From: a virus
Lineage: Duplodnaviria; Heunggongvirae; Uroviricota; Caudoviricetes
IMG/VR virus record: IMGVR_UViG_2663763232_000002
Location: 1 to 9,060 of that record
Length of the DNA stretch: 9,060 nucleotides
Strand: one strand, 5' to 3'
Within the stretch, counting starts at the first letter, position 1. Every line of letters starts with the position of its first letter. The notes beneath the pieces are model-generated. The model saw nothing but the letters and a program-made list of their open reading frames with translations, was not told where the DNA came from and did not search any database. Below, piece after piece: positions 1 through 9,060 of the stretch. The translations under genes and the position numbers were made by a program.

Positions 1-168
1 TCAGTTGTTACGGGAAGGAATCAGGGTGGCCAGATGTACAGTGGCACGTCTCATGGCGGCTCTTACCCTGCTGGTGCTGTTGCCAGCCCTCATTTCGATG
101 CTGCTCACAGTAGCCTGAACGGTCCGTAGTCGTACCGGGACAACCTCTCTTGCGACATGCGCGAGGGA

Positions 169-402
169 TTAACGCTGGCATGGTTCAATCCTCACGGAAC
201 CGTAGAGCGTATGCCGCTTCACTTCATCGTTCTCTGCCGTCATATAACCACGCTCATCAGGAACGGCTGCGATTACTTCGCCCTTCTCATCGTCAGCAGT
301 GAAGACATGCTTAACTTCAACACCATTGAGATAAACGCTATACCGCTCTTTGCTGAGGTTTATTTTTCTTCCAGGATCATCATCTAAAACGGTTAGTCTC
401 AT
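169..402 (-). CDS. Small hypothetical phage protein (77 aa), function unknown
   Basis: ATG at 402-400 preceded by an AGGGGA Shine-Dalgarno ('AGGGGATAAGA ATG' on the minus strand). Same orientation as the Rha gene upstream. No family recognised from the sequence. Confidence 0.5.
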   Translation of the reverse strand: MRLTVLDDDPGRKINLSKERYSVYLNGVEVKHVFTADDEKGEVIAAVPDERGYMTAENDEVKRHTLYGSVRIEPCQR

Positions 403-490
403 TCTTATCCCCTACTTGGTATATTGATTATCTTATTCGCTTGAAGGGATAACCATTATCAAGCCCACCCGTAGATGGGCTTTGGAATGG

Positions 491-1045
491 TCACTTTGGC
501 AGTCCTGGGATCGATATTTGCGCCTGCTGCTCAAGCCTTTCGATTCTTGCTATGAGTTGCGGTTTTTTGATCCTGCCCCAGCGGTTCAGCAAGCGTCCTG
601 ACATACTGGCAACATCCTTTTCCTTCATGAACTCCAGCATTAACTCGTTGTGCTCTCTTTGGTATGAGTGAGCCATCTCCATCAGCCTGTCACGCATCCA
701 ATTAAATGCTTTGATAAACGCCTCTTTGATGGCGGCAGCTTTTTTGCCGGTAAACGACATGATGATGTACATCGCGCCGTCTTTGGAAATTTCATATTCA
801 ACATACTGATTACCCTTGTGTTCATAGGTAACCCGCGAAAAGTTGCTGGTTAGAAATTCATCCGAACAGTCTAGCTTTTCGATTTTCTGAATGATGTGGT
901 GATGCTGCTTGTCGAAGTAAGCTGCTACCTTGCGGGAGGTTGTGATCACGCGATTACCAGAAACAACCACCATGTCCCGGAAATCGAGATTAGCCAATTG
1001 ATGATTCATAGCGTCTTTACCTTTTAGAAAGTGAGCCTGTCTCAC
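491..1045 (-). CDS. Rha-family phage regulatory protein (antirepressor-like)
   Basis: The N-terminal segment 'VVVSGNRVITTSRKVAAYFDKQHHHIIQKIEKL...YIIMSFTGKKAAAIKEAFIKAF' matches the Phage_pRha signature as I remember it. The ORF-track start at 1045 is a GTG; an in-frame ATG at 1009-1007 with an upstream AAAGG is an alternative start. Confidence 0.7.
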   Translation of the reverse strand: MRQAHFLKGKDAMNHQLANLDFRDMVVVSGNRVITTSRKVAAYFDKQHHHIIQKIEKLDCSDEFLTSNFSRVTYEHKGNQYVEYEISKDGAMYIIMSFTGKKAAAIKEAFIKAFNWMRDRLMEMAHSYQREHNELMLEFMKEKDVASMSGRLLNRWGRIKKPQLIARIERLEQQAQISIPGLPK

Positions 1046-1157
1046 AGAAAAGCCGCCCCGAGATGGTCGCCACCATATACGGCATTTCTCAGGCTCGCTT
1101 ACTGAAAGGCTCGGGTGATGTAATATGCGCGTGAGATGCGCTGTGAAATTCAGATGT

Positions 1158-1181
1158 AAAAAAAGCCCCGCATCGCGAGGC
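1158..1181 (-). terminator. Candidate rho-independent terminator downstream of Rz/Rz1
   Basis: Minus strand reads 5'-GCCTCGC-GAT-GCGGGGC-TTTTTTT-3': a 7-bp GC-rich stem (one G.U pair), 3-nt loop, then a 7-T tract, lying 33 nt past the Rz stop. Confidence 0.45.
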
Positions 1182-1213
1182 TCATTAAATGGACTTTGTG
1201 ATTTGCAAAAGAA

Positions 1214-1681
1214 TTATTTCAGGCATTGCGTCCTGATGTATTCCTGCAGGTAGTTAACCTGCGCGGTTATCTTGTCGATTCCACTTCGGAGACGGTAATA
1301 ATTGAGTTCAGCATCTGCTGTAAGTCTTGGGCTTTCTCCATCGCCCATGCTGCTGGCTCCGGTCGTTGACTTTGCACAGGTGGCGGCGACTTGCAGCCGC
1401 TTACGGCCAGCAATGACATCGCTATGCAGACGCTCAATGGTTTCTTTCGCATCAGCCAGTTCTCCGGTGTATTTGGCATCCAGTGCAGCGACATCACGCT
1501 GGCGGGTCTGCATGTCTTTAATGGTGGCGGTCGCCAGGAGGAGTTTCTCAGTGGCCTTATCGCGCTGGTCTCTGTAAGTGATGGCGTTGTCGCGGTAGTG
1601 GTTCACGAAGAAAGCCAGTGCGCCGATTAACGCCAGCACCAGCAACTGCAGCCAGTAACGCTTAACCAGTGCGCTAATCAT
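1214..1681 (-). CDS. Rz: Spanin, inner-membrane subunit (i-spanin) Rz
   Basis: The 155-aa product has an N-terminal hydrophobic anchor followed by '[11 protein letters not shown]...[19 protein letters not shown]', closely matching lambda Rz. Its ATG overlaps the endolysin stop (ATGA at 1678-1681). Confidence 0.9.
1267..1452 (-). CDS. Rz1: Spanin, outer-membrane lipoprotein subunit (o-spanin) Rz1, embedded in Rz in the +1 frame
   Basis: Internal ATG at 1452 gives a 61-aa product '[33 protein letters not shown]...' with a signal peptide, a lipobox (LAVSG|C) and a proline-rich mature region, as in lambda Rz1. It lies wholly inside Rz. The ORF-track entry 1267..1497 is the same frame with a spurious upstream extension. 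Confidence 0.8.
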
Positions 1682-2127
1682 GACAGGAACAGAGCTCGCT
1701 CTGCCTCCCGCCGACGTGTCAGCCCATTCAGCACCTTCCCACCAGCTTTATTCCAGCGCAGGAACTCATCGGCTGCACCAGCGTAATCTCCGGCGTTGAG
1801 TTTTCGCAGGAGAGTCGATGTCGACAATGACCGCGCACCGAGGTTATACGTGAACGACACCAGGGCATCGAACTGGCCTTGTGTCAGCTTCACCCTGACA
1901 ACTTTCAGCACGTCATTCTCATAACCAACAAGCCCTGTTTTCAGAAGCCTGTCAGCGGTTTGCTGGTCGATAGTCATACCGCGCTTTACTGGCTTTCCGT
2001 CAACCGGATGGGTCCAGCCATAGCCGATGGTCCACGGCGCATCTCCCGTTCCGGGGTCGGGGTAAGCAGTCAGCCGACAACCTTCAAATTTTTTTATCAG
2101 AGCAATTCCGTCAGGACTGGTTTGCAT
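1678..2127 (-). CDS. Endolysin, T4/P22-type lysozyme (GH24 muramidase)
   Basis: Catalytic-region pattern '[22 protein letters not shown]' (Glu, then Asp 8 residues later, then Thr 5 further) and the C-terminal 'FTYNLGA....[19 protein letters not shown]....GL..RR..E' resemble phage 21/P22 lysozymes. There is no N-terminal SAR/TM segment, so it depends on the holin. The ORF-track start at 2154 is TTG; I call the ATG at 2127-2125 with an upstream GGGAG. Confidence 0.85.
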
Positions 2128-2434
2128 CGTCAACTCCCGCCTTTTTTGCTGCAAGTTTTTTAATCAAATTGCCGATCGAATCGGTGCCGATGTATCCAAT
2201 AAAGACGCTGGCTATGTAGGCGAGGTTGCTGCTCAGGCCGATAAAGTCCAGAAGGTCACGAACGAACCAGGCAATCATCGCGCACATCAGCGCATCAATT
2301 AGCGTTTTTGTTACCGCGCCGCCGTTATAGCGACCACGCAGATACGCCATGATAAAAGCCAGCATTGCACCAATACCCTGCTCCTTGGCGGCAAGTAGCG
2401 CAGCAATGAAATCTTGTTTGTATGGCATTTTCAT
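2111..2434 (-). CDS. S: Class I holin, lambda S family, with dual-start motif (holin/antiholin)
   Basis: The 107-aa product '[39 protein letters not shown]...' is near-identical in pattern to lambda S, including the Met1-Lys2-Met3 dual start. A GGAGG Shine-Dalgarno lies 8 nt upstream. The ORF-track extension to 2512 starts at a TTG and is not supported. Confidence 0.9.
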
Positions 2435-2458
2435 AGGCCTCACCTCCGATTTTTCGGA
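2435..2458 (-). promoter_or_regulatory. S translation-initiation region: stem-loop overlapping the Shine-Dalgarno (sdi-like)
   Basis: Minus strand reads 5'-TCCGA-AAAA-TCGGA-GGTGAGGCCT-ATG: a 5-bp stem whose 3' arm overlaps the GGAGG Shine-Dalgarno, directly before the Met-Lys-Met dual start. This is analogous to the lambda S sdi structure that sets the S107:S105 ratio. Confidence 0.4.
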
Positions 2459-2540
2459 TGGCGCTGTGTGTGTATGAAAAGGATCAGGCTTCACTGGCTG
2501 GATTTTCAACAAAGCACGTAGTGATTGATTCCCGTGAGCC

Positions 2541-2567
2541 TGAAATAAAAAACCAGCTCAAGGCTGG
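2541..2567 (-). terminator. Candidate intrinsic terminator between the tRNA pair and S
   Basis: Minus strand reads 5'-CCAGC-CTTGA-GCTGG-TTTTTTATTT-3': a 5-bp stem (4 G:C), 5-nt loop and 6-T tract. The stem is short, so strength is uncertain. Confidence 0.4.
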
Positions 2568-2623
2568 AATGTTAGGGTGTGGCAATGTCAGCTCTGCGGC
2601 TGAAGATACCCTGGCTGGGTTTT

Positions 2624-2699
2624 TGGTGCCGGTTAACGGATTTGAACCGCTACCTATTCACTTACAAGGCGACCGCTCTACCATTGGAGCTAAACCAGC
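2624..2699 (-). tRNA. tRNA-Thr (anticodon UGU), phage-encoded
   Basis: Hand-folded 76-nt cloverleaf on the minus strand: acceptor GCTGGTT/AACCGGC (one G.U), U8, D-arm GCTC-CAATGGTA-GAGC with G18G19, anticodon loop CU-UGU-AA, T-arm AGCGG-TTCAAAT-CCGTT, discriminator A, encoded CCA. Deviations: C where A14 is expected and a G:A at 27:43. Confidence 0.55.
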
Positions 2700-2704
2700 A
2701 TGTT

Positions 2705-2779
2705 TGGCGGGACAGCGTGGACTCGAACCACGATAAGAAGGTTAACAGCCTTCCGTAATGACCTTTATACGACTGACCC
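2705..2779 (-). tRNA. tRNA-Asn (anticodon GUU), phage-encoded
   Basis: Hand-folded 75-nt cloverleaf on the minus strand: anticodon arm GAAGG-CUGUUAA-CCTTC (same loop as E. coli tRNA-Asn), T-arm CGTGG-TTCGAGT-CCACG, 4-nt variable loop, discriminator G, encoded CCA. The acceptor stem GGGTCAG/CTGTCCC has a U4:U69 mismatch and the D-stem has a 13:22 mismatch. It sits 5 nt upstream of the tRNA-Thr. Confidence 0.6.
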
Positions 2780-2783
2780 AAAT

Positions 2784-2825
2784 AAAAAAAGCCACCGTTG
2801 CAACTTAAGAGTCACTAACGGCAGC
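2784..2825 (-). terminator. Candidate tR'-like leader terminator between Q and the tRNAs
   Basis: Minus strand reads 5'-GCTGCCGTT-(17-nt loop AGTGACTCTTAAGTTGC)-AACGGTGGC-TTTTTTTATTT: a 9-bp stem (7 Watson-Crick plus 2 G.U) followed by a 7-T tract. The T tract ends 4 nt before the tRNA-Asn 5' end. Confidence 0.45.
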
Positions 2826-2829
2826 TTAT

Positions 2830-2866
2830 GCGAATAGTGTTGCTCATTTGCTCAATGATGTCAACA
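2830..2866 (-). promoter_or_regulatory. Candidate late promoter pR' / Q-utilisation region
   Basis: A perfect -35 hexamer TTGACA on the minus strand at 2864-2859, seven nt after the Q stop. No convincing -10 at 16-19 bp spacing (AACACT, ACACTA and CACTAT are the options). The position, directly downstream of Q and upstream of a leader terminator, matches lambdoid pR'. Confidence 0.3.
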
Positions 2867-2870
2867 CGTT

Positions 2871-3359
2871 CTATGCTACATGTTTAATTTTCTCTACACG
2901 TTTCCGGTTTTTAAACGCACTATCCAGAACTGGGTAAATCATAAACAACGAAGCATTGAGGATTTCGTCAACTTCCCGGCGACAGGTTGCGAGCGATGGT
3001 TTTTGAATACGCCCGCCGCCCCGGCATAACATCTTGCGAGGTCTTGCGACACGATGATAGTAAGATGCAATGGCATGCTTGGAAGATCCATGAGCGTAGT
3101 AGCTGAGGAGGATGCCAAAGGCTTTCTTGTCAATGCACATGACGGAATCGACGACCTGAGAAATCAACATTCCATCATCATCATTACACATTGGCCTTGT
3201 CATAACTCTTCCCGGCTCTACGCTCTCCATGAACTTCGCTATTACGCTGCTCATGCGCTTTTCCAGACGACCTGAATAAACCCATGCGCCCCACAGTTCA
3301 AGCCAGCCATTCAGCCAATCGTGCTGTTCTTTGGTGAGGTTTAGTTCTCTTATGCTCAT
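2871..3359 (-). CDS. Q: Late-gene antiterminator Q (Q family of E. coli lambdoid prophages, not lambda-Q type by sequence)
   Basis: The 162-aa product 'WLELWGAWVYSGRLEKR...MTRPMCNDDDGML...SYYAHGSS...RRE' matches, from memory, the Q antiterminators of E. coli lambdoid prophages. Position is canonical, between ninH and the lysis cassette. The ATG overlaps the ninH stop (ATGA, 3356-3359). Confidence 0.75.
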   Translation of the reverse strand: MSIRELNLTKEQHDWLNGWLELWGAWVYSGRLEKRMSSVIAKFMESVEPGRVMTRPMCNDDDGMLISQVVDSVMCIDKKAFGILLSYYAHGSSKHAIASYYHRVARPRKMLCRGGGRIQKPSLATCRREVDEILNASLFMIYPVLDSAFKNRKRVEKIKHVA

Positions 3360-3544
3360 CGTCTTCCCCTCTTGCCCTGTTTGACCATCAGGACGCCGTT
3401 AACTATTACGTGACGCTCGCCTTTGCTGTCTCGGTTGTACTTGAGCACTGTTCCTCTTGCGCAGGAAAGCATCCTTGCCACTTCGGTCTGATTGCCTCGT
3501 GTCTGGATAAGAAGCTCTGGTATCGTTTGAATTGTGGCGTTCAT
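3356..3544 (-). CDS. ninH: NinH (small HTH DNA-binding protein)
   Basis: '..TIPELLIQTRGNQTEVARMLSCARGTVLKY..D.KGE.HVIVNGVLMV' aligns with lambda NinH ('KTIPDMLVEAYGNQTEVARRLKCSRGTVRKY...HAIVNDVLMV'). ATGA overlap with rusA at 3541-3544. Confidence 0.85.
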   Translation of the reverse strand: MNATIQTIPELLIQTRGNQTEVARMLSCARGTVLKYNRDSKGERHVIVNGVLMVKQGKRGRR

Positions 3545-3903
3545 ACGTTCTCCAGTTCGGTGATTTTTATTCCAAGCCGTCCGCCTGGTACTTTCACGCC
3601 ACGAATTACGCGAATGTCATCGAATTGCTCGTCGTCTTCCGCAAATCCTGCGTGGATAAGGGAATCGAGTAAACCCTTCAGGATGTTATCGAGGTCGCGG
3701 CGGCGGGAGTCTGGAACGTCTGCGATGACTTTGATGCGGAGTCTTGATTTGGTGAAAATGTCTAACTTGAGTTGGCGGATGATTTGCTGAACGTCTTTTC
3801 GGTATTTCTGGCCTTTATCGCTGATGTAGTATTGGCTTCCCCGTCTTCGCCAGTAGGTGTTCACCGACGGCTGGTAAGGAAGCACAAACTGATATTCGTT
3901 CAT
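3541..3903 (-). CDS. rusA: Holliday-junction resolvase RusA
   Basis: The 120-aa product 'YQFVLPYQPSVNTYWRRRG...IADVPDSRRRDLDNILKGLLDSLIHAGF..DD.Q..D.RV......GGRL.I.ITE' shows the RusA family motifs (catalytic Asp cluster RRRDLDN). ATGA overlap with the upstream gene. Confidence 0.9.
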   Translation of the reverse strand: MNEYQFVLPYQPSVNTYWRRRGSQYYISDKGQKYRKDVQQIIRQLKLDIFTKSRLRIKVIADVPDSRRRDLDNILKGLLDSLIHAGFAEDDEQFDDIRVIRGVKVPGGRLGIKITELENV

Positions 3904-4190
3904 GGCTTAATCTTCCCCTCCTTCAGCAGGATCGCCTGCGTCCTGATCACGCCTTCGAGGTGATAAAGTCTGGCGTCTTTGTTGTCGAGGTTATGGGTGC
4001 GTCGGTCGATCTCCGCGTGGCAGTCACTACAAGCCCATGTGCCGATCAGGTCGGCAGGCTTCATTCCCGTTCCGCAAATTCCAGCCATCCGGTAATGCGC
4101 CAGAACTGTAGTTTCAGGATTACCATTGCATATGCCGTAAATACGTACCTGGCATTCTCTGCCGCGCGCTTCTTTGCGTAGGTTAGCCAT
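3900..4190 (-). CDS. ybcO: YbcO-like DUF1364 protein (putative Zn-binding nuclease)
   Basis: 'MANLRKEARGRECQVRIYGICNGNPETTVLAHYRMAGICGTG.KP.DL....ACSDCHAEIDRRTH' closely matches DLP12 YbcO as I recall it, and sits directly upstream of rusA as in DLP12. Confidence 0.8.
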   Translation of the reverse strand: MANLRKEARGRECQVRIYGICNGNPETTVLAHYRMAGICGTGMKPADLIGTWACSDCHAEIDRRTHNLDNKDARLYHLEGVIRTQAILLKEGKIKP

Positions 4191-4459
4191 TATGGTTCAC
4201 TCCAGTAATTCTCAATTGCAGCAGCCATTCTCTGCATCCACTCAGCCAGCTTTAACGCGGCTTCTCTTTCAGAACCACATTTAGGGAAATCCTTCATTTC
4301 CATGCTGGCCTTATATGTTCTGAATGCCAGGTCTCCGGTAATAACCAGCTCCTGATCAAGCACCGAGCGTTTATTCCGGTGTTGAACGTAATAGACAGAT
4401 TCAGTCCGCATTTCTTCTCTGTCTTTTTTGAAGGAAATAAGCTCAGAGAAATCATTCAT
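4190..4459 (-). CDS. Hypothetical nin-region protein (89 aa)
   Basis: Clean ATG at 4459-4457; an 8-nt start/stop overlap with ninF upstream and a 1-nt overlap with the ybcO-like gene downstream show it is embedded in the translationally coupled operon. No recognisable family. It occupies the slot that ninG/rap holds in lambda. Confidence 0.6.
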   Translation of the reverse strand: MNDFSELISFKKDREEMRTESVYYVQHRNKRSVLDQELVITGDLAFRTYKASMEMKDFPKCGSEREAALKLAEWMQRMAAAIENYWSEP

Positions 4460-4622
4460 CGTCTTCTTCCTCGTACATTGAGCTATTCGGATCGCTCATC
4501 AGTTCTGCGCAGCAATCGGAGCACACGTGAACTTCCAGCACATACAGCTTCTGACCGCAGTTAGCGCACGTTAAAGCCCGCTCGACGCTTTCTTGTTCGT
4601 AACTTCGATTTGGGTCAATCAC
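4452..4622 (-). CDS. ninF: NinF (56 aa), absent from the ORF track because it is under 60 aa
   Basis: Manual translation of the minus strand gives '(V/M)[55 protein letters not shown]', matching lambda NinF ('...[45 protein letters not shown].'). GTG start at 4622-4620 with a GAGGAAAA Shine-Dalgarno 8 nt upstream; GTGA overlap with the ninE stop. Confidence 0.7.
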
Positions 4623-4801
4623 CTTGTTTTCCTCGCACGTTCTCTAAGCCACCGGATATCCCACAGGTGAGCCGTGTAGTTGAAGGTTTTTACGTCAGAT
4701 TCTTTTGGGATTGGCTTGCGTTTATTTCTGGAGCGTTTCGTTGGAAGGTATTTGCAGTTTTCGCAGATGATGTCGGTGATACTTCGTCGCTGTCGTCTCA
4801 T
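4619..4801 (-). CDS. ninE: NinE (60 aa)
   Basis: Internal ATG at 4801-4799 with an AGGAGG Shine-Dalgarno 5 nt upstream gives '[60 protein letters not shown]', matching lambda-type NinE from memory. The ATG overlaps the methyltransferase stop (ATGA, 4798-4801). The ORF-track 90-aa version is a spurious 5' extension. Confidence 0.75.
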
Positions 4802-5343
4802 GCCGCCCTCCTGACGCCCTGCCCGATCGCCATCAATGCCACTTTGGATACGGTAGTAAACATCCGTCGAGGACTGATGAACGGTCGCCAAATCAGCAGC
4901 ATGGAGCCTTTGCTGTTTCCCTTTTTCTCCAGCCCTGTCGATGGTTCGATAAAATTAATCCGTCCATCAGTGATAATACGAACTTCGTCAACACTCTCCA
5001 GAGCCTTGCTGAACCATCCGACTGACATATCCTCTGGCACAAGCATCACTACCGTCTGTCGCTGTTGTATGCACTGCTCAGCGGCTTTTTCCACCCACGG
5101 CCTGATATTGCTGTACGGTGGGTTATTCCAGATTGCACCGTGGCTTATCCACTCAGAATTGAGCGCGTTGTCAGCCTCAGTTAGCCAGTGAGCGCACAGA
5201 GCATTTTTGTCGCTCGCTGCCGAATCCAGCCAGAATCCAAACTCAATATCCAGTGCATCAAAAAGCCAGAGCGGCGTTTGCCAGCAGTCCTTGTCGTGTG
5301 CTGGCGTATTTGATTTGATAGTCATGCAGCCCGATCTCCCCAT
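4798..5343 (-). CDS. Phage DNA N6-adenine methyltransferase (Dam-like, orphan)
   Basis: '[28 protein letters not shown].......L...W....[17 protein letters not shown].......Q.VVMLVP' carries the NPPY catalytic motif IV and matches the phage Dam (PF05869-type) pattern. No cognate restriction gene is adjacent. An alternative ATG at 5325 overlaps the HNH stop as ATGA and may be the true start. Confidence 0.85.
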
Positions 5344-5924
5344 CTCGCTTTCATTTTTTCATTTGCAAATCGCCAGAATCTTCCTTTGTGATATGAGCTT
5401 TCGCCATTACAGCAACGACTAATTGACGAACTATCAAATCCTTCTCTGACAGCATCCATAGCTGCTTCATAATAAACCTCCTCCCCAGTTTTCATGTCAG
5501 TAGAAATAACAGCTTTACTGGCAGGATGGTCACCACTAAATTTACCTAGCGATATAGGTATTCTTCCATTTTGTTTATATCCGTGTTTTGAGTTTTCAGA
5601 ATGTGATACCCATTCAAGGTTATCAGCCCTATTGTCATCTCTTCGCCCATTTTTGTGATTAACTACCAAGCCATCACAGAACCCTGTACAGAATGCTTTC
5701 GCAACTATCCTGTGGGCGCTGTATTTCTTACCGTATACCTTTATTTGAAGATATCCTGTCGACTTGCACTTGAATGGTTTTACACTAGTGCCATTAATTA
5801 TTTTCTTATATGGCCTCTGTCTGGTTGATGTTACTGTAACTTCCCTCGTAATAGACCTAAAATTTCCTTTATTGCTAACCTGATAAAATGGAATCCCTTC
5901 GATATCTACCCAAACCTCAATCAT
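5322..5924 (-). CDS. Free-standing HNH homing endonuclease (NUMOD4 + HNH_3-type)
   Basis: N-terminal NUMOD4-like 'EVWVDIEGIPFYQVSNKGNFRSI'; HNH core 'H-KNG-RRD-DN-RAD-NL-EWVSHSE-N-SK-H'; C-terminal 'F.S...AA...G.....IS.CC.G...S..G..WRF', typical of phage HNH endonuclease DNA-binding tails. GGAGG Shine-Dalgarno before the ATG at 5924. The gene body is markedly AT-rich. Confidence 0.85.
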   Translation of the reverse strand: MIEVWVDIEGIPFYQVSNKGNFRSITREVTVTSTRQRPYKKIINGTSVKPFKCKSTGYLQIKVYGKKYSAHRIVAKAFCTGFCDGLVVNHKNGRRDDNRADNLEWVSHSENSKHGYKQNGRIPISLGKFSGDHPASKAVISTDMKTGEEVYYEAAMDAVREGFDSSSISRCCNGESSYHKGRFWRFANEKMKARWGDRAA

Positions 5925-6333
5925 AATTCCTCCATTCGCTAAGATGAATTGAGTTCATGGCACAATATGCTTCTATGTAGTCCATTATTTCGGATATTTT
6001 TTTTACAGATAGAGTCGCCGTACTCTCTCTGATGTTTATTAGCTCACCTTCTAACCCTGATATAATCTCAGGGTGCTGGTTGGTTGCAATCTGCCAACCA
6101 GAAACGAATAACCCCTTCCAAAACTCAATATTTCTTGCTTTTCCATGATATGTAGCCTTCTTACTTATTTCAGATAGCATCGCGTGAAGGCGTGCATTTT
6201 GCCGAATGCTGCGGTTGCGTTCCTGAATGGTTACTACGATTGGTTTGGTTGGGTCTGGAAGGATTTGCTGTACTGCGTGAATAGCGTTTTGCTGATGTGC
6301 TGGAGATCGAATTTCAAAGGTTAGTTTTTTCAT
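5917..6333 (-). CDS. ninB: NinB (Orf-family recombination mediator), mosaic allele
   Basis: The first ~41 residues, 'MKKLTFEIRSPAHQQNAIHAVQQILPDPTKPIVVTIQERNRS', match lambda NinB as I recall it; the remainder is homologous but divergent. GAGGGAAG Shine-Dalgarno before the ATG at 6333. Confidence 0.85.
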   Translation of the reverse strand: MKKLTFEIRSPAHQQNAIHAVQQILPDPTKPIVVTIQERNRSIRQNARLHAMLSEISKKATYHGKARNIEFWKGLFVSGWQIATNQHPEIISGLEGELINIRESTATLSVKKISEIMDYIEAYCAMNSIHLSEWRNYD

Positions 6334-6526
6334 GACTTCCCTCTCTAACAGATTTCAGGTTATTCCACTCCGTTACCGCACTGCGATAATTCGCGGCCGC
6401 CACAGCAGCGTGGTTAGCGCAGTAGATTTCGCACCCGCTCTCCATGTCAAATATTGTCGGTGATTTTCCGCATTTACATTTTTTGGCACGCGGTGCGTCT
6501 GAACACATTCCGTTAACGGTGTCCAT
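6314..6526 (-). CDS. Small Cys-rich hypothetical protein (70 aa, zinc-ribbon-like)
   Basis: Strong Shine-Dalgarno (GAGGGGGA) before the ATG at 6526. Cysteines are arranged C-x8-CxC...C-x3-C. It is the first gene after the terminator, in the position of ren in lambda. No family recognised. Confidence 0.5.
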   Translation of the reverse strand: MDTVNGMCSDAPRAKKCKCGKSPTIFDMESGCEIYCANHAAVAAANYRSAVTEWNNLKSVREGSHEKTNL

Positions 6527-6550
6527 CAGGATCCCCCTCGTTCTTAATCC

Positions 6551-6581
6551 AATAAAAAAGGGCTACTGTGTAAATAGCCCC
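6551..6581 (-). terminator. Intrinsic terminator downstream of the primase-helicase (tR2-like position)
   Basis: Minus strand reads 5'-GGGCTA-TTTACACAG-TAGCCC-TTTTTTATT-3': a 6-bp stem (7 if the flanking G:C is counted), 9-nt loop and 6-T tract, between the replication gene stop (6612) and the first nin-region gene. Confidence 0.6.
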
Positions 6582-6611
6582 TGTTATTAGCTCAGTGATG
6601 TAGATGGTCAT

Positions 6612-8492
6612 TTAATACTCCGTCACGTTTTCCTGTCGCCACGCCTCGTCATATTCCGATTTCGGCATATTGGCGATGTAGCTATAAGGCGATCCTGATT
6701 CAAGTTGCAGGAACTGGTGCGATTGCTCGTCAAGGAACAAAGGGACGCCACCTTCCCAACCTTCGCCGTTACGTTGCTTTTCAAGCATCAAAACAGATGC
6801 CGGAGATGCCAGTAGCTGTTCGTCCTTCTCTGACATCTTTTCACCACTCTGAACTCTCTGTAACGCTCTCTCGCGAGCCTTGTTACGCCAGATGATGAAA
6901 AGGTTGTCTGTCAGGTCTGTTATCGCTCCAGAGCCTTTTACGTCCATTTTCCCGGTTGGTTTTTCTTCGCTGTCACCTTTTCGCGAGTGAGTAACGAGAA
7001 TGACGTGGGAGTTTGTTTTGTTTTTGAAATCGCAAATCGAGTCAACAAACGCCTTCTGCCCGTTATAGTCATCGTCGCCTATGCCACATTTCATTAGGCT
7101 GTCGATGATGAATAACTGGATCCCGTATCGGCGGCGAGCGTAGTCGAATATTTCGATCAGCCTGTCGGCTTTCGCCGTTCCGGTCAGACCAAACACCCAA
7201 AGTCTTTCGTCATAAAATTTAAATGCAGAGTCAATTTCCAGCACTGGCGGCATCTTGCAGCACGTCGCCTGACGGGTAAGGCGCTTAAGGAGAATACCAG
7301 GCTTCAGCTCAAGTGACGCGATGCACGTCTTCACACCCTGACGCATTGCCTCAAGTGCCATATGCCCGACAACCTCCGTTTTTCCGTGACCGTTCACACC
7401 ATTGACCAGCGTCAACTCGGCCTCACGGAACTGGAATTTATCTGCCAGAGATTCCCACGGTGGATTAAACAGATACTGCTGCTTGCCGTAGAAAGCGTTG
7501 ATAGTGTCCTGGTAAAACTCTCGCGCGCTGTAGAGTTCTTCAGGATCGAAGTAGGATGCCGTGCCGATGTACTGCCAGATTTCATCCTCGGTAACACCGT
7601 TCATCAGGCATTCGTTGATGTCTTTGTACGGCAGAGTAACAAGACGGCAACGATGTTCACCGAGTCGGCTTGCGATTTCCCTTGCGGCTTCACGACCAAC
7701 ATCATCAACGTCCATCGAGATGAATATTTCCTCAAACCTGTCGAGGTTGTGATACTCAAACTCAATCCACTGTTGCTTAGCGCCTTTCCCGCCACCAAAC
7801 GGCACGGATAACGCCGAGATGCCGTATTGCGCATAGCTCATACAATCAATTTCGCCTTCGCAAAGTACAACCGCCCTCACGCCAGCGTCCAGAGCCTGCC
7901 ATCCGAACAGACAAGGTTCGCAATCACCTTCTGCCATAATGACTTTCTTCCCGTCCGGGCGCTCAGTGCTGATTCGCTTGACCTGCAACAACTCACCATC
8001 GCGTTTGTACGGAATCACCAGAGCATCCAGTTCTCGCTCTCCATTCCACACCTTGCCGCTGACAACCTCGTAGCGCTTTACGACTTCTGGCGATATGCCA
8101 CGCGATTGCAGGTACTCAAGATGGGATTCTGTTCTGGTAACGTAGCGGGCGATTTTCTTGCGATCAGGTCTGGAGAATTTCTTCTCACGTTTGGCATCGA
8201 AATGGTGATCGTCATCCTTGATACCGAGAAATGCTTTCGCTTCCTGCATAGCCTGATGCAGGTTAATTCCTCGACATGCCATCCACAAATCAAGCATGTC
8301 ACCGCCGTCCCCCTCAGCGAAATCAGCCCATTTTTTCTTGCCGCTAAGGTTGACCTTAAGGCTGTTTCCCTTGTCACCGTTGACGTTACCGGCAACCCAC
8401 TCATGCCCCTCTTTCTTGCCGTTTGGCAACAGGTGCGGAGCCACCCTGTCAACCTGCGCCCAAAGCAGGTCGCTAAGTTCACTTGGCGTCAT
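6612..8492 (-). CDS. Bifunctional DNA primase-helicase, T7 gp4-like (degenerate zinc-binding-like domain, TOPRIM primase, DnaB-family helicase)
   Basis: TOPRIM motifs 'VVLCEGEIDCMS' and 'ISMDVDDVGREAA', and 'LPYKDINECLMNG' (T7 gp4 has 'LPCKDANECHLNG'). Helicase Walker A 'NGVNGHGKT', Walker B 'LFIIDSL', and 'VKGSGAITDLTDNLFIIWRN' (T7 has '[20 protein letters not shown]'). GAGGGA Shine-Dalgarno before the ATG at 8492. Confidence 0.9.
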   Translation of the reverse strand: MTPSELSDLLWAQVDRVAPHLLPNGKKEGHEWVAGNVNGDKGNSLKVNLSGKKKWADFAEGDGGDMLDLWMACRGINLHQAMQEAKAFLGIKDDDHHFDAKREKKFSRPDRKKIARYVTRTESHLEYLQSRGISPEVVKRYEVVSGKVWNGERELDALVIPYKRDGELLQVKRISTERPDGKKVIMAEGDCEPCLFGWQALDAGVRAVVLCEGEIDCMSYAQYGISALSVPFGGGKGAKQQWIEFEYHNLDRFEEIFISMDVDDVGREAAREIASRLGEHRCRLVTLPYKDINECLMNGVTEDEIWQYIGTASYFDPEELYSAREFYQDTINAFYGKQQYLFNPPWESLADKFQFREAELTLVNGVNGHGKTEVVGHMALEAMRQGVKTCIASLELKPGILLKRLTRQATCCKMPPVLEIDSAFKFYDERLWVFGLTGTAKADRLIEIFDYARRRYGIQLFIIDSLMKCGIGDDDYNGQKAFVDSICDFKNKTNSHVILVTHSRKGDSEEKPTGKMDVKGSGAITDLTDNLFIIWRNKARERALQRVQSGEKMSEKDEQLLASPASVLMLEKQRNGEGWEGGVPLFLDEQSHQFLQLESGSPYSYIANMPKSEYDEAWRQENVTEY

Positions 8493-8542
8493 GATTCCCT
8501 CAGATTGAGATTTTTAAACCAGAAATCGACAAACGAAATACT

Positions 8543-8558
8543 TAACCAGCCGTGGTTA
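8543..8558. promoter_or_regulatory. Inverted repeat TAACCA-GCCG-TGGTTA in the intergenic region upstream of the primase-helicase
   Basis: Six-bp arms that are exact reverse complements, separated by 4 bp, about 50 nt upstream of the primase-helicase start. Flanked by three AACCAG direct repeats (8517, 8544, 8560). Candidate operator or hairpin; no functional evidence. Confidence 0.25.
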
Positions 8559-8599
8559 TAACCAGCGACCAGTAGCGATTTGATTTTTGATTTCATGGT

Positions 8600-8974
8600 T
8601 CACCTGTCGAAAAACACGTAGCCAGTTTTCGATACGGTGATTGCGGATGATGGTTTGGATTGTGGTTGAATAGTTTCTGGCTTCTCGTCGTTCCAGCGTT
8701 GACCGTTCAGGTAGCTCGATGGTAACAACCTGTCGAATCCGAACTGCTTACCATTCCTGCATGCGATGTCTTCTGCCAGCATCGTGGCAAACTCGCTTGC
8801 CGTACCCCTGGTAGTTTTACGCCATTCCCTGAACTGTGTTCTGAATGCCGAAGCTGCGTTTTTCTTCCCGGCTTTCCGCATGCCTGCACACCAGAATATT
8901 TCCTCGAATGCCTTGTCGGTTTCTTCGTGACGGTCAGGAGTTTTTTCACACTCTGTTCGGACATGTTCGAACAT
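8600..8974 (-). CDS. Hypothetical replication-module protein (initiator-like?), probably 5'-truncated by the window edge
   Basis: The 124-aa ORF from ATG 8974 has no Shine-Dalgarno, and the same frame stays open upstream to the window end at 9060, so the real start is likely outside the window. Located immediately upstream of the primase-helicase. No family recognised. Confidence 0.5.
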   Translation of the reverse strand: MFEHVRTECEKTPDRHEETDKAFEEIFWCAGMRKAGKKNAASAFRTQFREWRKTTRGTASEFATMLAEDIACRNGKQFGFDRLLPSSYLNGQRWNDEKPETIQPQSKPSSAITVSKTGYVFFDR

Positions 8975-9021
8975 AATGTTTTTAGGTTCATTGACTGGTT
9001 CAAAAGAGTGATAGGTTCTGG

Positions 9022-9060
9022 GGGCAGCTCCTGCCCCACCCCCTAGGGCAGCTCCTGCCC
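9022..9060. repeat. Tandem palindromic iteron-like repeats (candidate replication origin or operator array), truncated by the window end
   Basis: The 15-bp unit GGGCAGCTCCTGCCC (arms GGGCAG/CTGCCC, 3-bp centre) occurs at 9022-9036 and 9046-9060 with a 24-bp period. The window ends inside the array. Confidence 0.5.

Follow-up and report, generated by a model that had tools for sequence, protein, structure and literature searches.

The window analysed here is the whole stretch of 9,060 nucleotides at positions 1 to 9,060 of the IMG/VR virus record IMGVR_UViG_2663763232_000002 (Caudoviricetes), a lambdoid late region in which every gene lies on the minus strand. Our subject is an interval of that strand (169-1213), 3' of the lysis genes Rz/Rz1 and before a short HNH-like open reading frame (ORF) at 8-181, which holds an rha gene and a 77-aa ORF (ORF77). 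A sequence-only reading had taken these two genes for a single cassette, separately terminated and promoted. Our analysis suggests instead, with a probability of about 0.7, that the interval is the junction of two independent mosaic blocks, an rha cassette and an ORF77/HNH block, and that rha would be transcribed by late read-through and gated at the level of its translation.

The distribution of the two genes among other phages, together with the places at which homology breaks, carries this reading. Two sets of 80 IMG/VR contigs were used, one encoding Rha at least 97% identical to that of the window (the Rha set) and one encoding a relative of ORF77 (the ORF77 set), and module borders were taken as the blastn homology breakpoints in these sets. 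ORF77 is found in none of the 80 contigs of the Rha set, and a Rha homologue is found in only 1 of the 80 contigs of the ORF77 set, where it lies 2 kb away and is not adjacent; across the 80 + 80 contigs, then, rha and ORF77 are not neighbours elsewhere. In 74 of the 80 Rha loci the block that contains rha stops at 454; the homology of the ORF77 block spans 45 to 402/403, and the breakpoints between the two genes accordingly stand at 402/403 and 454. The top matches among complete E. coli genomes, which cover 73% of the window, also break at 454. On the side of the lysis genes, 33 of the 80 Rha loci show a break at 1182, and in the others homology runs on into Rz. Judged by these borders, the rha cassette is a unit of one gene, 454-1182, reaching from a predicted terminator after Rz (tRz) to a predicted stem-loop 3' of rha.

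The earlier picture of a two-gene cassette does not survive these counts and breakpoints. In its full form it would make rha and ORF77 a two-gene moron (a class reportedly defined for HK97/HK022 by Juhala et al. 2000) that has a promoter and a terminator to itself and is active in the prophage, with a function in superinfection exclusion or regulation, and we regard this as very improbable. Both genes do have the lysis genes on one side and the packaging genes on the other, each is preceded, as had been noted, by its own Shine-Dalgarno sequence (AAAAGG for rha, AGGGGA for ORF77), a terminator stands before rha, and both genes are missing from some related phages. However, beyond the 0/80 and 1/80 co-occurrence and the break in homology between the genes, ORF77 overlaps and travels with the HNH gene, no promoter-like site was found in the scan described below, and there is no match to the PADLOC defence models.

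Borders of the rha cassette and the ORF77 block

On its 5' side the exchangeable slot is bounded by the intrinsic terminator tRz (1156-1183, minus strand), recognised by scan, folding and alignment of homologues. In the scan, its stem (1183-1163) has nine pairs, six of them G-C, with a 3-nt loop and a T tract running down to 1156, and it folds with a free energy (dG) of -14.1 kcal/mol (z -2.35). Six terminator-like sites were found in the region against 3.1 +/- 2.0 expected, a count that is weak when taken alone, and tRz is convincing because it is conserved across phages and not because of the number of sites. Compensatory changes preserve its pairing in the alignment of homologous phages (GCCTCGC/GCGGGGC, GCCTGAC/GTCGGGC and GGTCGC/GCGGCC), and the annotations of phi80 and epsilon34 mark a terminator at the same site. 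The terminator-like hairpin and T tract that had been predicted after Rz are thus confirmed, on sequence conservation, as a real feature of this region. The claim of a separately terminated and promoted module holds only in its first half, in that tRz divides the slot from Rz; a scan for sigma-70 promoters over 1-3000 on both strands, with other promoter types outside its reach, gave 0 sigma-70-like sites on either strand. The best candidate picked out by hand upstream of rha, TTCACA-16-TATTAC, was rejected as its -10 element is without the final T and its -35 region is missing or replaced in homologues, so that it is not conserved.

The other end of the cassette is marked by a stem-loop (448-494, minus strand), predicted from folding and from the breakpoints, which begins at the rha stop codon and encloses an inner hairpin at about 454-490. 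It has a dG of -26.3 kcal/mol (z -5.4), a stability reached by 0 of 200 shuffles, and is without a U tract. In a three-way alignment, the inner hairpin is common to contexts in which rha is followed by any of several genes and to contexts in which a DUF2829 gene is followed by ORF77, and it is likely, on this comparison, to be the recombination joint that brought rha beside ORF77 in the window. The sequence of the stem-loop was also seen behind a DUF2829 gene, upstream of ORF77, in E. coli ET245 and in contig L006, so that it would serve as a linker shared between cassettes; it may also be an RNA 3' stabiliser, a processing site or a protein site. ORF77 and the HNH gene are present in ET245 at 99.8% identity, with a DUF2829 gene in place of rha, and the spacer at 403-453 (minus strand), part of the ORF77/HNH block, recurs unchanged in ET245 and L006 behind their DUF2829 gene. 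In related phages, DUF2829, KilA-N or T5orf172/GIY-YIG-type genes occupy the place between the same terminator and the 3' stem-loop. Such replacements support a variable slot after Rz/Rz1 with rha as an accessory occupant. The idea of an accessory occupant of the post-Rz slot therefore stands for rha, which is swapped among relatives, and falls for ORF77, which goes with the HNH/terminase block.

ORF77 (169-402, minus strand; 77 aa) is a conserved small all-beta phage protein, and that it is genuine, as had been supposed, is borne out by 267 related database proteins (E <= 1e-3) of 75-78 aa from Enterobacteriaceae prophages. The Shine-Dalgarno sequence of ORF77 precedes the ATG by 6 nt. At its other end, the ORF shares 13 nt with the start of the HNH gene, whose own Shine-Dalgarno sequence (GAGGA) lies within the 3' end of ORF77. 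An HNH gene overlaps or adjoins the 3' end of ORF77 in 42 of the 80 contigs of the ORF77 set and is found within 4 kb in 18 more. From this neighbourhood and from the overlap with the HNH gene, it follows that ORF77 belongs to the HNH/terminase block. The HNH endonuclease gene of the window (8-181, minus strand; 57 aa) is truncated: PHROG 144 is matched with its N-terminal part only (E 1.1e-07), Pfam gives no match, the first 44 aa match an intact 116-aa homologue, and the region of the HNH motif is missing. In E. coli ET245 the intact 116-aa HNH gene is followed by the gene for a P27-family small terminase subunit and then by that for the large subunit.

This arrangement could mean that ORF77 is a functional accessory of HNH/terminase packaging, for example a cofactor of cos cleavage or of the terminase, and not a moron, a proposal that we consider doubtful. 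It draws on the 13-nt overlap, on the Shine-Dalgarno sequence of the HNH gene inside ORF77, and on the 42 loci with HNH directly downstream and the 18 more with HNH at up to 4 kb, after which terminase genes follow. Nevertheless, HNH genes of the same type stand directly after rha, without ORF77, in contigs L090, L094, L097, L121 and L127, and at least 12 loci give the ORF77 family a leader of its own (see below), which is the behaviour of an independent cassette. Moreover, no fold or family clue ties ORF77 to packaging and no fold match was found for it; a PADLOC-DB search with ORF77 was likewise without a match.

A structured leader before rha

The 170 nt between Rz and rha are the most conserved non-coding sequence of the interval. 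They contain a structured leader of 135 nt (1007-1141, minus strand), which is one copy of a repeated element and has its 3' end at the rha ATG. The leader is made up of a GCGC hairpin (1127-1141) and a long imperfect hairpin (1019-1110), and in its outer helix a CCUUU stretch is paired with the rha Shine-Dalgarno sequence (AAAAGG, 1020-1025) in both the minimum free energy (MFE) and the consensus structures. The copy in the window folds with an MFE of -47.2 kcal/mol (z -2.78). A blastn search with the spacer between Rz and rha matched 224 phage records, often with a different gene downstream, and the leader matches come from Stx, Escherichia, Salmonella, Klebsiella, Enterobacter and Hafnia phages as well as from one Actinobacillus phage. 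When diverse copies are aligned, the long imperfect hairpin appears with compensatory changes.

A covariance model (R1), built from 15 leader copies, scores the leader of the window at 143 bits and returns 86 matches at E < 1e-5 in 75 sources. Of the 80 Rha loci, 79 have one copy before rha, and the remaining contig (L089) begins at rha. All copies end at a start codon, and the genes that follow them encode proteins with Rha, Rha+ANT, KilA-N, KilA-N+ORF11CD3, T5orf172/MUG113 and HNH_3 domains, and further tail-tip-like proteins, N15 gp59-like proteins, a 485-aa protein and members of the ORF77 family. Two copies per phage are frequent, as in contig L065 (3891-4005 and 4367-4504), and the complete phi80 genome has exactly two, one at 43647-43777 before rha and one at 45241-45356 before gp66, both between Rz and cos. 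A hairpin followed by a run of five or more T is found in 64 of 77 distinct flanks upstream of leader copies. In a few phages, weaker matches to R1 (38-52 bits) were also seen about 2.2-2.8 kb upstream of rha, outside the post-Rz slot (L110 232-364, L134 369-501, L092 658-784 and L090 450-576).

In the alignment derived from the model, 95.3% of the cells are paired, and double-sided changes occur in 21 of 25 pairs; one pair, for instance, is CG in 28 copies, AU in 23, GC in 18 and UA in 6. None of 500 shuffles reaches the observed values, and covariation is 0.272 as against at most 0.065 for slid controls. An independent test imposed the MFE structure of the window on a MAFFT alignment of 35 leader copies less than 88% identical to one another, and here 81% of the cells are paired (at most 46% when slid), with a covariation of 0.183 (at most 0.094). 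RNAalifold, run on the plain MAFFT alignment of the 35 copies, recovered the inner helices only, together with some spurious long-range pairs. Cells with G.U number 188 and those with A.C number 40, and this excess favours an RNA made from the sense strand. Taken as comparative evidence, these results indicate that the structure of the leader is conserved, with covariation on the sense strand.

The pairing data also bear on whether the leader has an RNA function at all, since it could be a DNA homology patch for recombination, or a hitch-hiking remnant. We find this unlikely, even though mosaic breakpoints lie at the ends of the leader unit (about 1005-1009 and 1182), several copies per genome stand beside different genes, and shuffling through repeated regulatory cassettes is known from T4-type phages (PMC2839356). 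A linker needs identity and not pairing, whereas the pairing here is kept through double changes; the asymmetry between G.U and A.C and the 3' end fixed at the Shine-Dalgarno sequence and start codon point in the same direction. A DNA patch and an RNA role are not mutually exclusive, however, and we read the leader as a putative translational gate that doubles as a recombination linker. No family of Rfam 15 matches the leader, and a scan of the whole window with Rfam 15 (E <= 1) gave two tRNAs only, with no family in 1-1213. The 5' box of the leader, GCGCATCGCACGCGC, is highly conserved without an obvious structural need. For the IHF consensus WATCAANNNNTTR, the leader was looked over by eye only, with no convincing match.

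A more tentative proposal, to which we would give somewhat less than an even chance, is that the leader at 1007-1141 is a member of a mobile "cassette adaptor" RNA family, in which a terminator plus a Shine-Dalgarno-sequestering leader of about 115-135 nt gates and shuffles whichever accessory gene lies between the lysis and packaging modules of lambdoid/P22-like phages, joined to the start codon of that gene. The gating would be aimed at potentially toxic genes of the late transcript, and its relief could possibly come from RNase III, a phage factor or IHF. If true, a covarying leader that sequesters the Shine-Dalgarno sequence and is repeated before many accessory genes, in Stx2a-converting phages as well, would explain how potentially harmful accessory genes are kept quiet in the lambdoid late transcript, and would account for the mosaic joints that lie precisely at the starts of genes in this region. 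It could further offer a physical candidate for the old link between IHF and rha expression. The repeated leader family looks new, older phage literature aside, and it is the only lead in the interval with real potential for novelty.

The rha gene, its product and its expression

We place rha at 491-1009 (minus strand), encoding a protein of 172 aa whose N-terminal part is a Rha domain and whose C-terminal part is an ORF11CD3 helical hairpin. The ORF at 491-1045 scores 83.9 bits against Pfam Phage_pRha (PF09669; cut-off 29.9) and 83.7 bits against ORF11CD3 (cut-off 25), and the product of rha matches TIGR02681 at 76.8 bits (cut-off 45.95) and PHROG 518 at 1.5e-80. With the curated cut-offs exceeded, the gene is solidly a member of the Rha family. 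The earlier description of a 184-aa Rha gene was therefore right about the family and wrong about the length: the extension to the GTG at 1045 comes from the ORF finder and was rejected, because the RefSeq start of an identical gene is the ATG equivalent to 1009 (172 aa), the PHROG profile starts at the Met encoded by this ATG, and the sequence shared with phages that have another gene in the slot gives out at this point. For phi80 rha (JX871397.1, 43739-44293), the GenBank start is the upstream GTG (184 aa), which lies inside the conserved leader hairpin; cross-phage conservation and the RefSeq calls for homologues favour the ATG at 43775 (172 aa).

In an AlphaFold2 (AF2) model of the window Rha (pLDDT 84.3), the N-terminal domain is mixed alpha/beta, and two helices, 89-134 and 138-162, form a long antiparallel hairpin in the ORF11CD3 region. 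Structure searches with this model returned nothing informative beyond "helical hairpin". Related PHROG families that share domains with the window Rha are labelled anti-repressor. The genomic place of rha is constant on one side, with Rz upstream in 79 of the 80 loci of the Rha set, and variable on the other, where DUF2560-like 80-aa genes, HNH genes, terminases and others are found 3' of rha. The Rha of Stx2a-converting phages (LC645413.1, 1249-1800) has an ORF11CD3 region nearly identical to that of the window and a different Rha domain, a comparison that points to domain-level mosaicism within rha. A 117-aa database protein (P0166), with Pfam PF06085 and ORF11CD3, shares 90% identity with the C-terminal half of the window Rha and is either an odd domain fusion or a frameshifted call.

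A published summary of the older genetics (PMC4936722) describes phi80 Rha, and likewise rha (orf201) in the late operon of P22, as detrimental to lytic growth without IHF, and the annotation of phi80 rha reads "DNA synthesis inhibition in IHF- hosts". One could still suppose that rha alone is a true moron, with a promoter in the leader that is active in the lysogen and a product that is either an exclusion factor or, for prophages in the same cell, an antirepressor or cross-regulator. The cassette does have a terminator on its 5' side and a stem-loop on its 3' side, rha is present or absent at the same site as a moron would be, the related PHROG families carry the anti-repressor label, the leader-preceded relatives include Rha+ANT and KilA-N+ORF11CD3, and the conserved 5' box of the leader could have a use other than structure. 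We nonetheless hold this to be improbable, given that the scan of 1-3000 yielded 0 sigma-70 matches for a promoter of its own, that the -35 region of the candidate is deleted or replaced in many copies, that the Shine-Dalgarno sequence is sequestered, and that P22 rha is described, in that same summary, as a late-operon gene. A role in superinfection exclusion, which had been put forward for the pair, is unsupported: neither protein matches PADLOC defence models, and Rha gives only a partial match to PDC-S05 (E 0.005) in the PADLOC-DB search. The best-supported interpretation is that Rha would be an accessory late-operon regulator of an antirepressor-like class, and not an exclusion gene expressed in the lysogen.

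Under the two-block reading, block 1 (454-1182) would comprise tRz, the 135-nt structured leader, rha and the 3' stem-loop, and would fill an exchangeable slot between lysis and packaging genes, as rha does in phi80, P22-like and Stx2a phages. Without a promoter of its own, rha would be transcribed late, by Q-modified RNA polymerase proceeding from pR' through tRz, and the leader hairpin would sequester the Shine-Dalgarno sequence, so that translation of rha is held down or made conditional. Rha itself may be a DNA-binding regulator, antirepressor-like, with an ORF11CD3 hairpin that probably oligomerises; by analogy with phi80 Rha, it would be dispensable, and its overproduction could harm phage DNA synthesis, as in IHF-deficient hosts. 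Swapping would proceed through homology patches, namely the unit of terminator and leader and the 3' stem-loop, both of which recur round other accessory genes. Block 2 (45-402, with the spacer to 453) would consist of ORF77, translationally coupled to the HNH gene that heads an HK97/P27-type terminase module, and would be broken in the window, where the HNH gene appears fused to an internal fragment of the insertion sequence (IS) IS629/IS1203.

A few points weigh against this explanation. The helix that pairs with the Shine-Dalgarno sequence is almost invariant, so that covariation supports the inner helices and cannot test this one, which rests on conservation and thermodynamics. The alignment produced by the covariance model leans towards the structure that was modelled. 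The TTCACA-16-TATTAC sequence is present in the window leader, and a weak or non-sigma-70 promoter is possible there. Finally, the window Rha and phi80 Rha share only 38% identity over their full length, and the IHF-linked phenotype may not transfer from one to the other.

Neighbouring features and known systems

At the left edge of the window, positions 1-59 (plus strand) are an internal fragment of an IS629/IS1203 (IS3-family) transposase gene, with a 100% match in many records; the match is to the middle of the transposase coding sequence and not to an end of the IS. A three-way alignment places a 10-nt microhomology, CTCATGGCGG, at the junction of the IS and the HNH gene (50-59), and the fusion leaves 44 genuine HNH codons of 116, with divergence after residue 44. 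This fusion is either a deletion by illegitimate recombination or an assembly chimera; if it is a true deletion, it would leave the prophage defective for packaging.

Upstream of the interval in the direction of late transcription lie, all on the minus strand, the genes for the Q antiterminator (2871-3359), tRNA-Asn(GTT) (2705-2779), tRNA-Thr(TGT) (2624-2699), the holin (2111-2512) and the lysozyme (1678-2154). These are followed by Rz, the i-spanin gene (1214-1681; Pfam Phage_lysis 134 bits, PHROG 13), and by Rz1, the o-spanin gene (1267-1452), which lies in the +1 frame inside Rz and has the lipobox LAVSGC (PHROG 3198); Rz/Rz1 are the last core lysis genes. Both tRNA genes have Q on one side and the holin gene on the other, close to pR', a place in which tRNAs and small RNAs are found in phages of the Stx type. 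The prophage small RNAs AgvB, AsxR and Pas were considered for the interval and dropped, as the Pas genes lie near Q and the holin gene and not after Rz. Farther away, a 200-aa ORF (5322-5924, minus strand) is flanked by ninB and the gene for an adenine methyltransferase; its match in RefSeq goes under the names NUMOD4 domain-containing protein or HNH homing endonuclease, which makes it probable that a mobile homing-endonuclease gene has inserted here in the nin region.

Several known systems resemble parts of this locus. An HNH endonuclease of the HK97 gp74 type is reportedly found beside the terminase genes (Kala et al. 2014 are said to have described it), and HK97 gp74 is like the intact relatives of the window gene, in which the HNH gene stands just upstream of P27/HK97-type small and large terminase genes. 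The window differs in that its HNH gene breaks off after codon 44, where IS629/IS1203 sequence is joined to it, and the overlapping ORF77 is absent from the described HK97 gp74 system. Hairpins that sequester the Shine-Dalgarno sequence upstream of T4 homing-endonuclease/intron ORFs were reportedly found by Gott et al. 1988. As the rha leader is predicted to do, these hairpins cover the ribosome-binding site of a gene that is dispensable or selfish and lies inside a longer transcript, and some of the genes preceded by the leader are of HNH_3 and T5orf172/GIY-YIG-like types. However, relief in T4 comes from a late promoter within the hairpin, and no such promoter is evident in the leader.

The PeSL cassettes of T4-type phages (PMC2839356) are likewise short, repeated stem-loop regulatory motifs that flank accessory genes, and they share with the leader a hyperplastic region and a placement at the boundaries of insertions and replacements. 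PeSL provides an early promoter, whereas the leader has no recognisable promoter, follows a terminator and sets a Shine-Dalgarno-sequestering hairpin at the start codon; there is also no sequence relation between the PeSL of T4-type phages and the leader of lambdoid/P22-like temperate phages. The bor gene of lambda is comparable to rha in its slot, from Rz to the packaging genes, in its presence/absence polymorphism and in its flanking hairpins. In contrast to rha, which has the orientation of the late operon, no detectable promoter and a sequestered Shine-Dalgarno sequence, bor lies on the opposite strand and is expressed in the lysogen from its own promoter.

The rha genes of phi80 and P22 agree with that of the window in family (Phage_pRha), in their 172 aa, in their two-domain build and in their late-operon place after Rz/Rz1, and in phi80 an upstream terminator and leader 89% identical to those of the window are present as well. 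The phi80 Rha, at 38% identity, is a different allele, and gp63 to gp66 and cosQ lie downstream of it, as against ORF77 and HNH in the window. In P22-like phages the order is 13, 19, 15, Rz1, a small ORF and Rha, and then on to gp3 (PMC4837284), while in a Stx2a-converting phage it is Rz, leader, a 183-aa Rha and the small terminase subunit. The locus singled out by the sequence-only reading is thus an ordinary one, and the value of our analysis is corrective, in the borders of the cassette (454/1182), in the start of rha and in the exclusion of ORF77 from the unit. The placement of rha after Rz, behind tRz, is the classical phi80/P22 arrangement, already known, of which the window carries a new allele.

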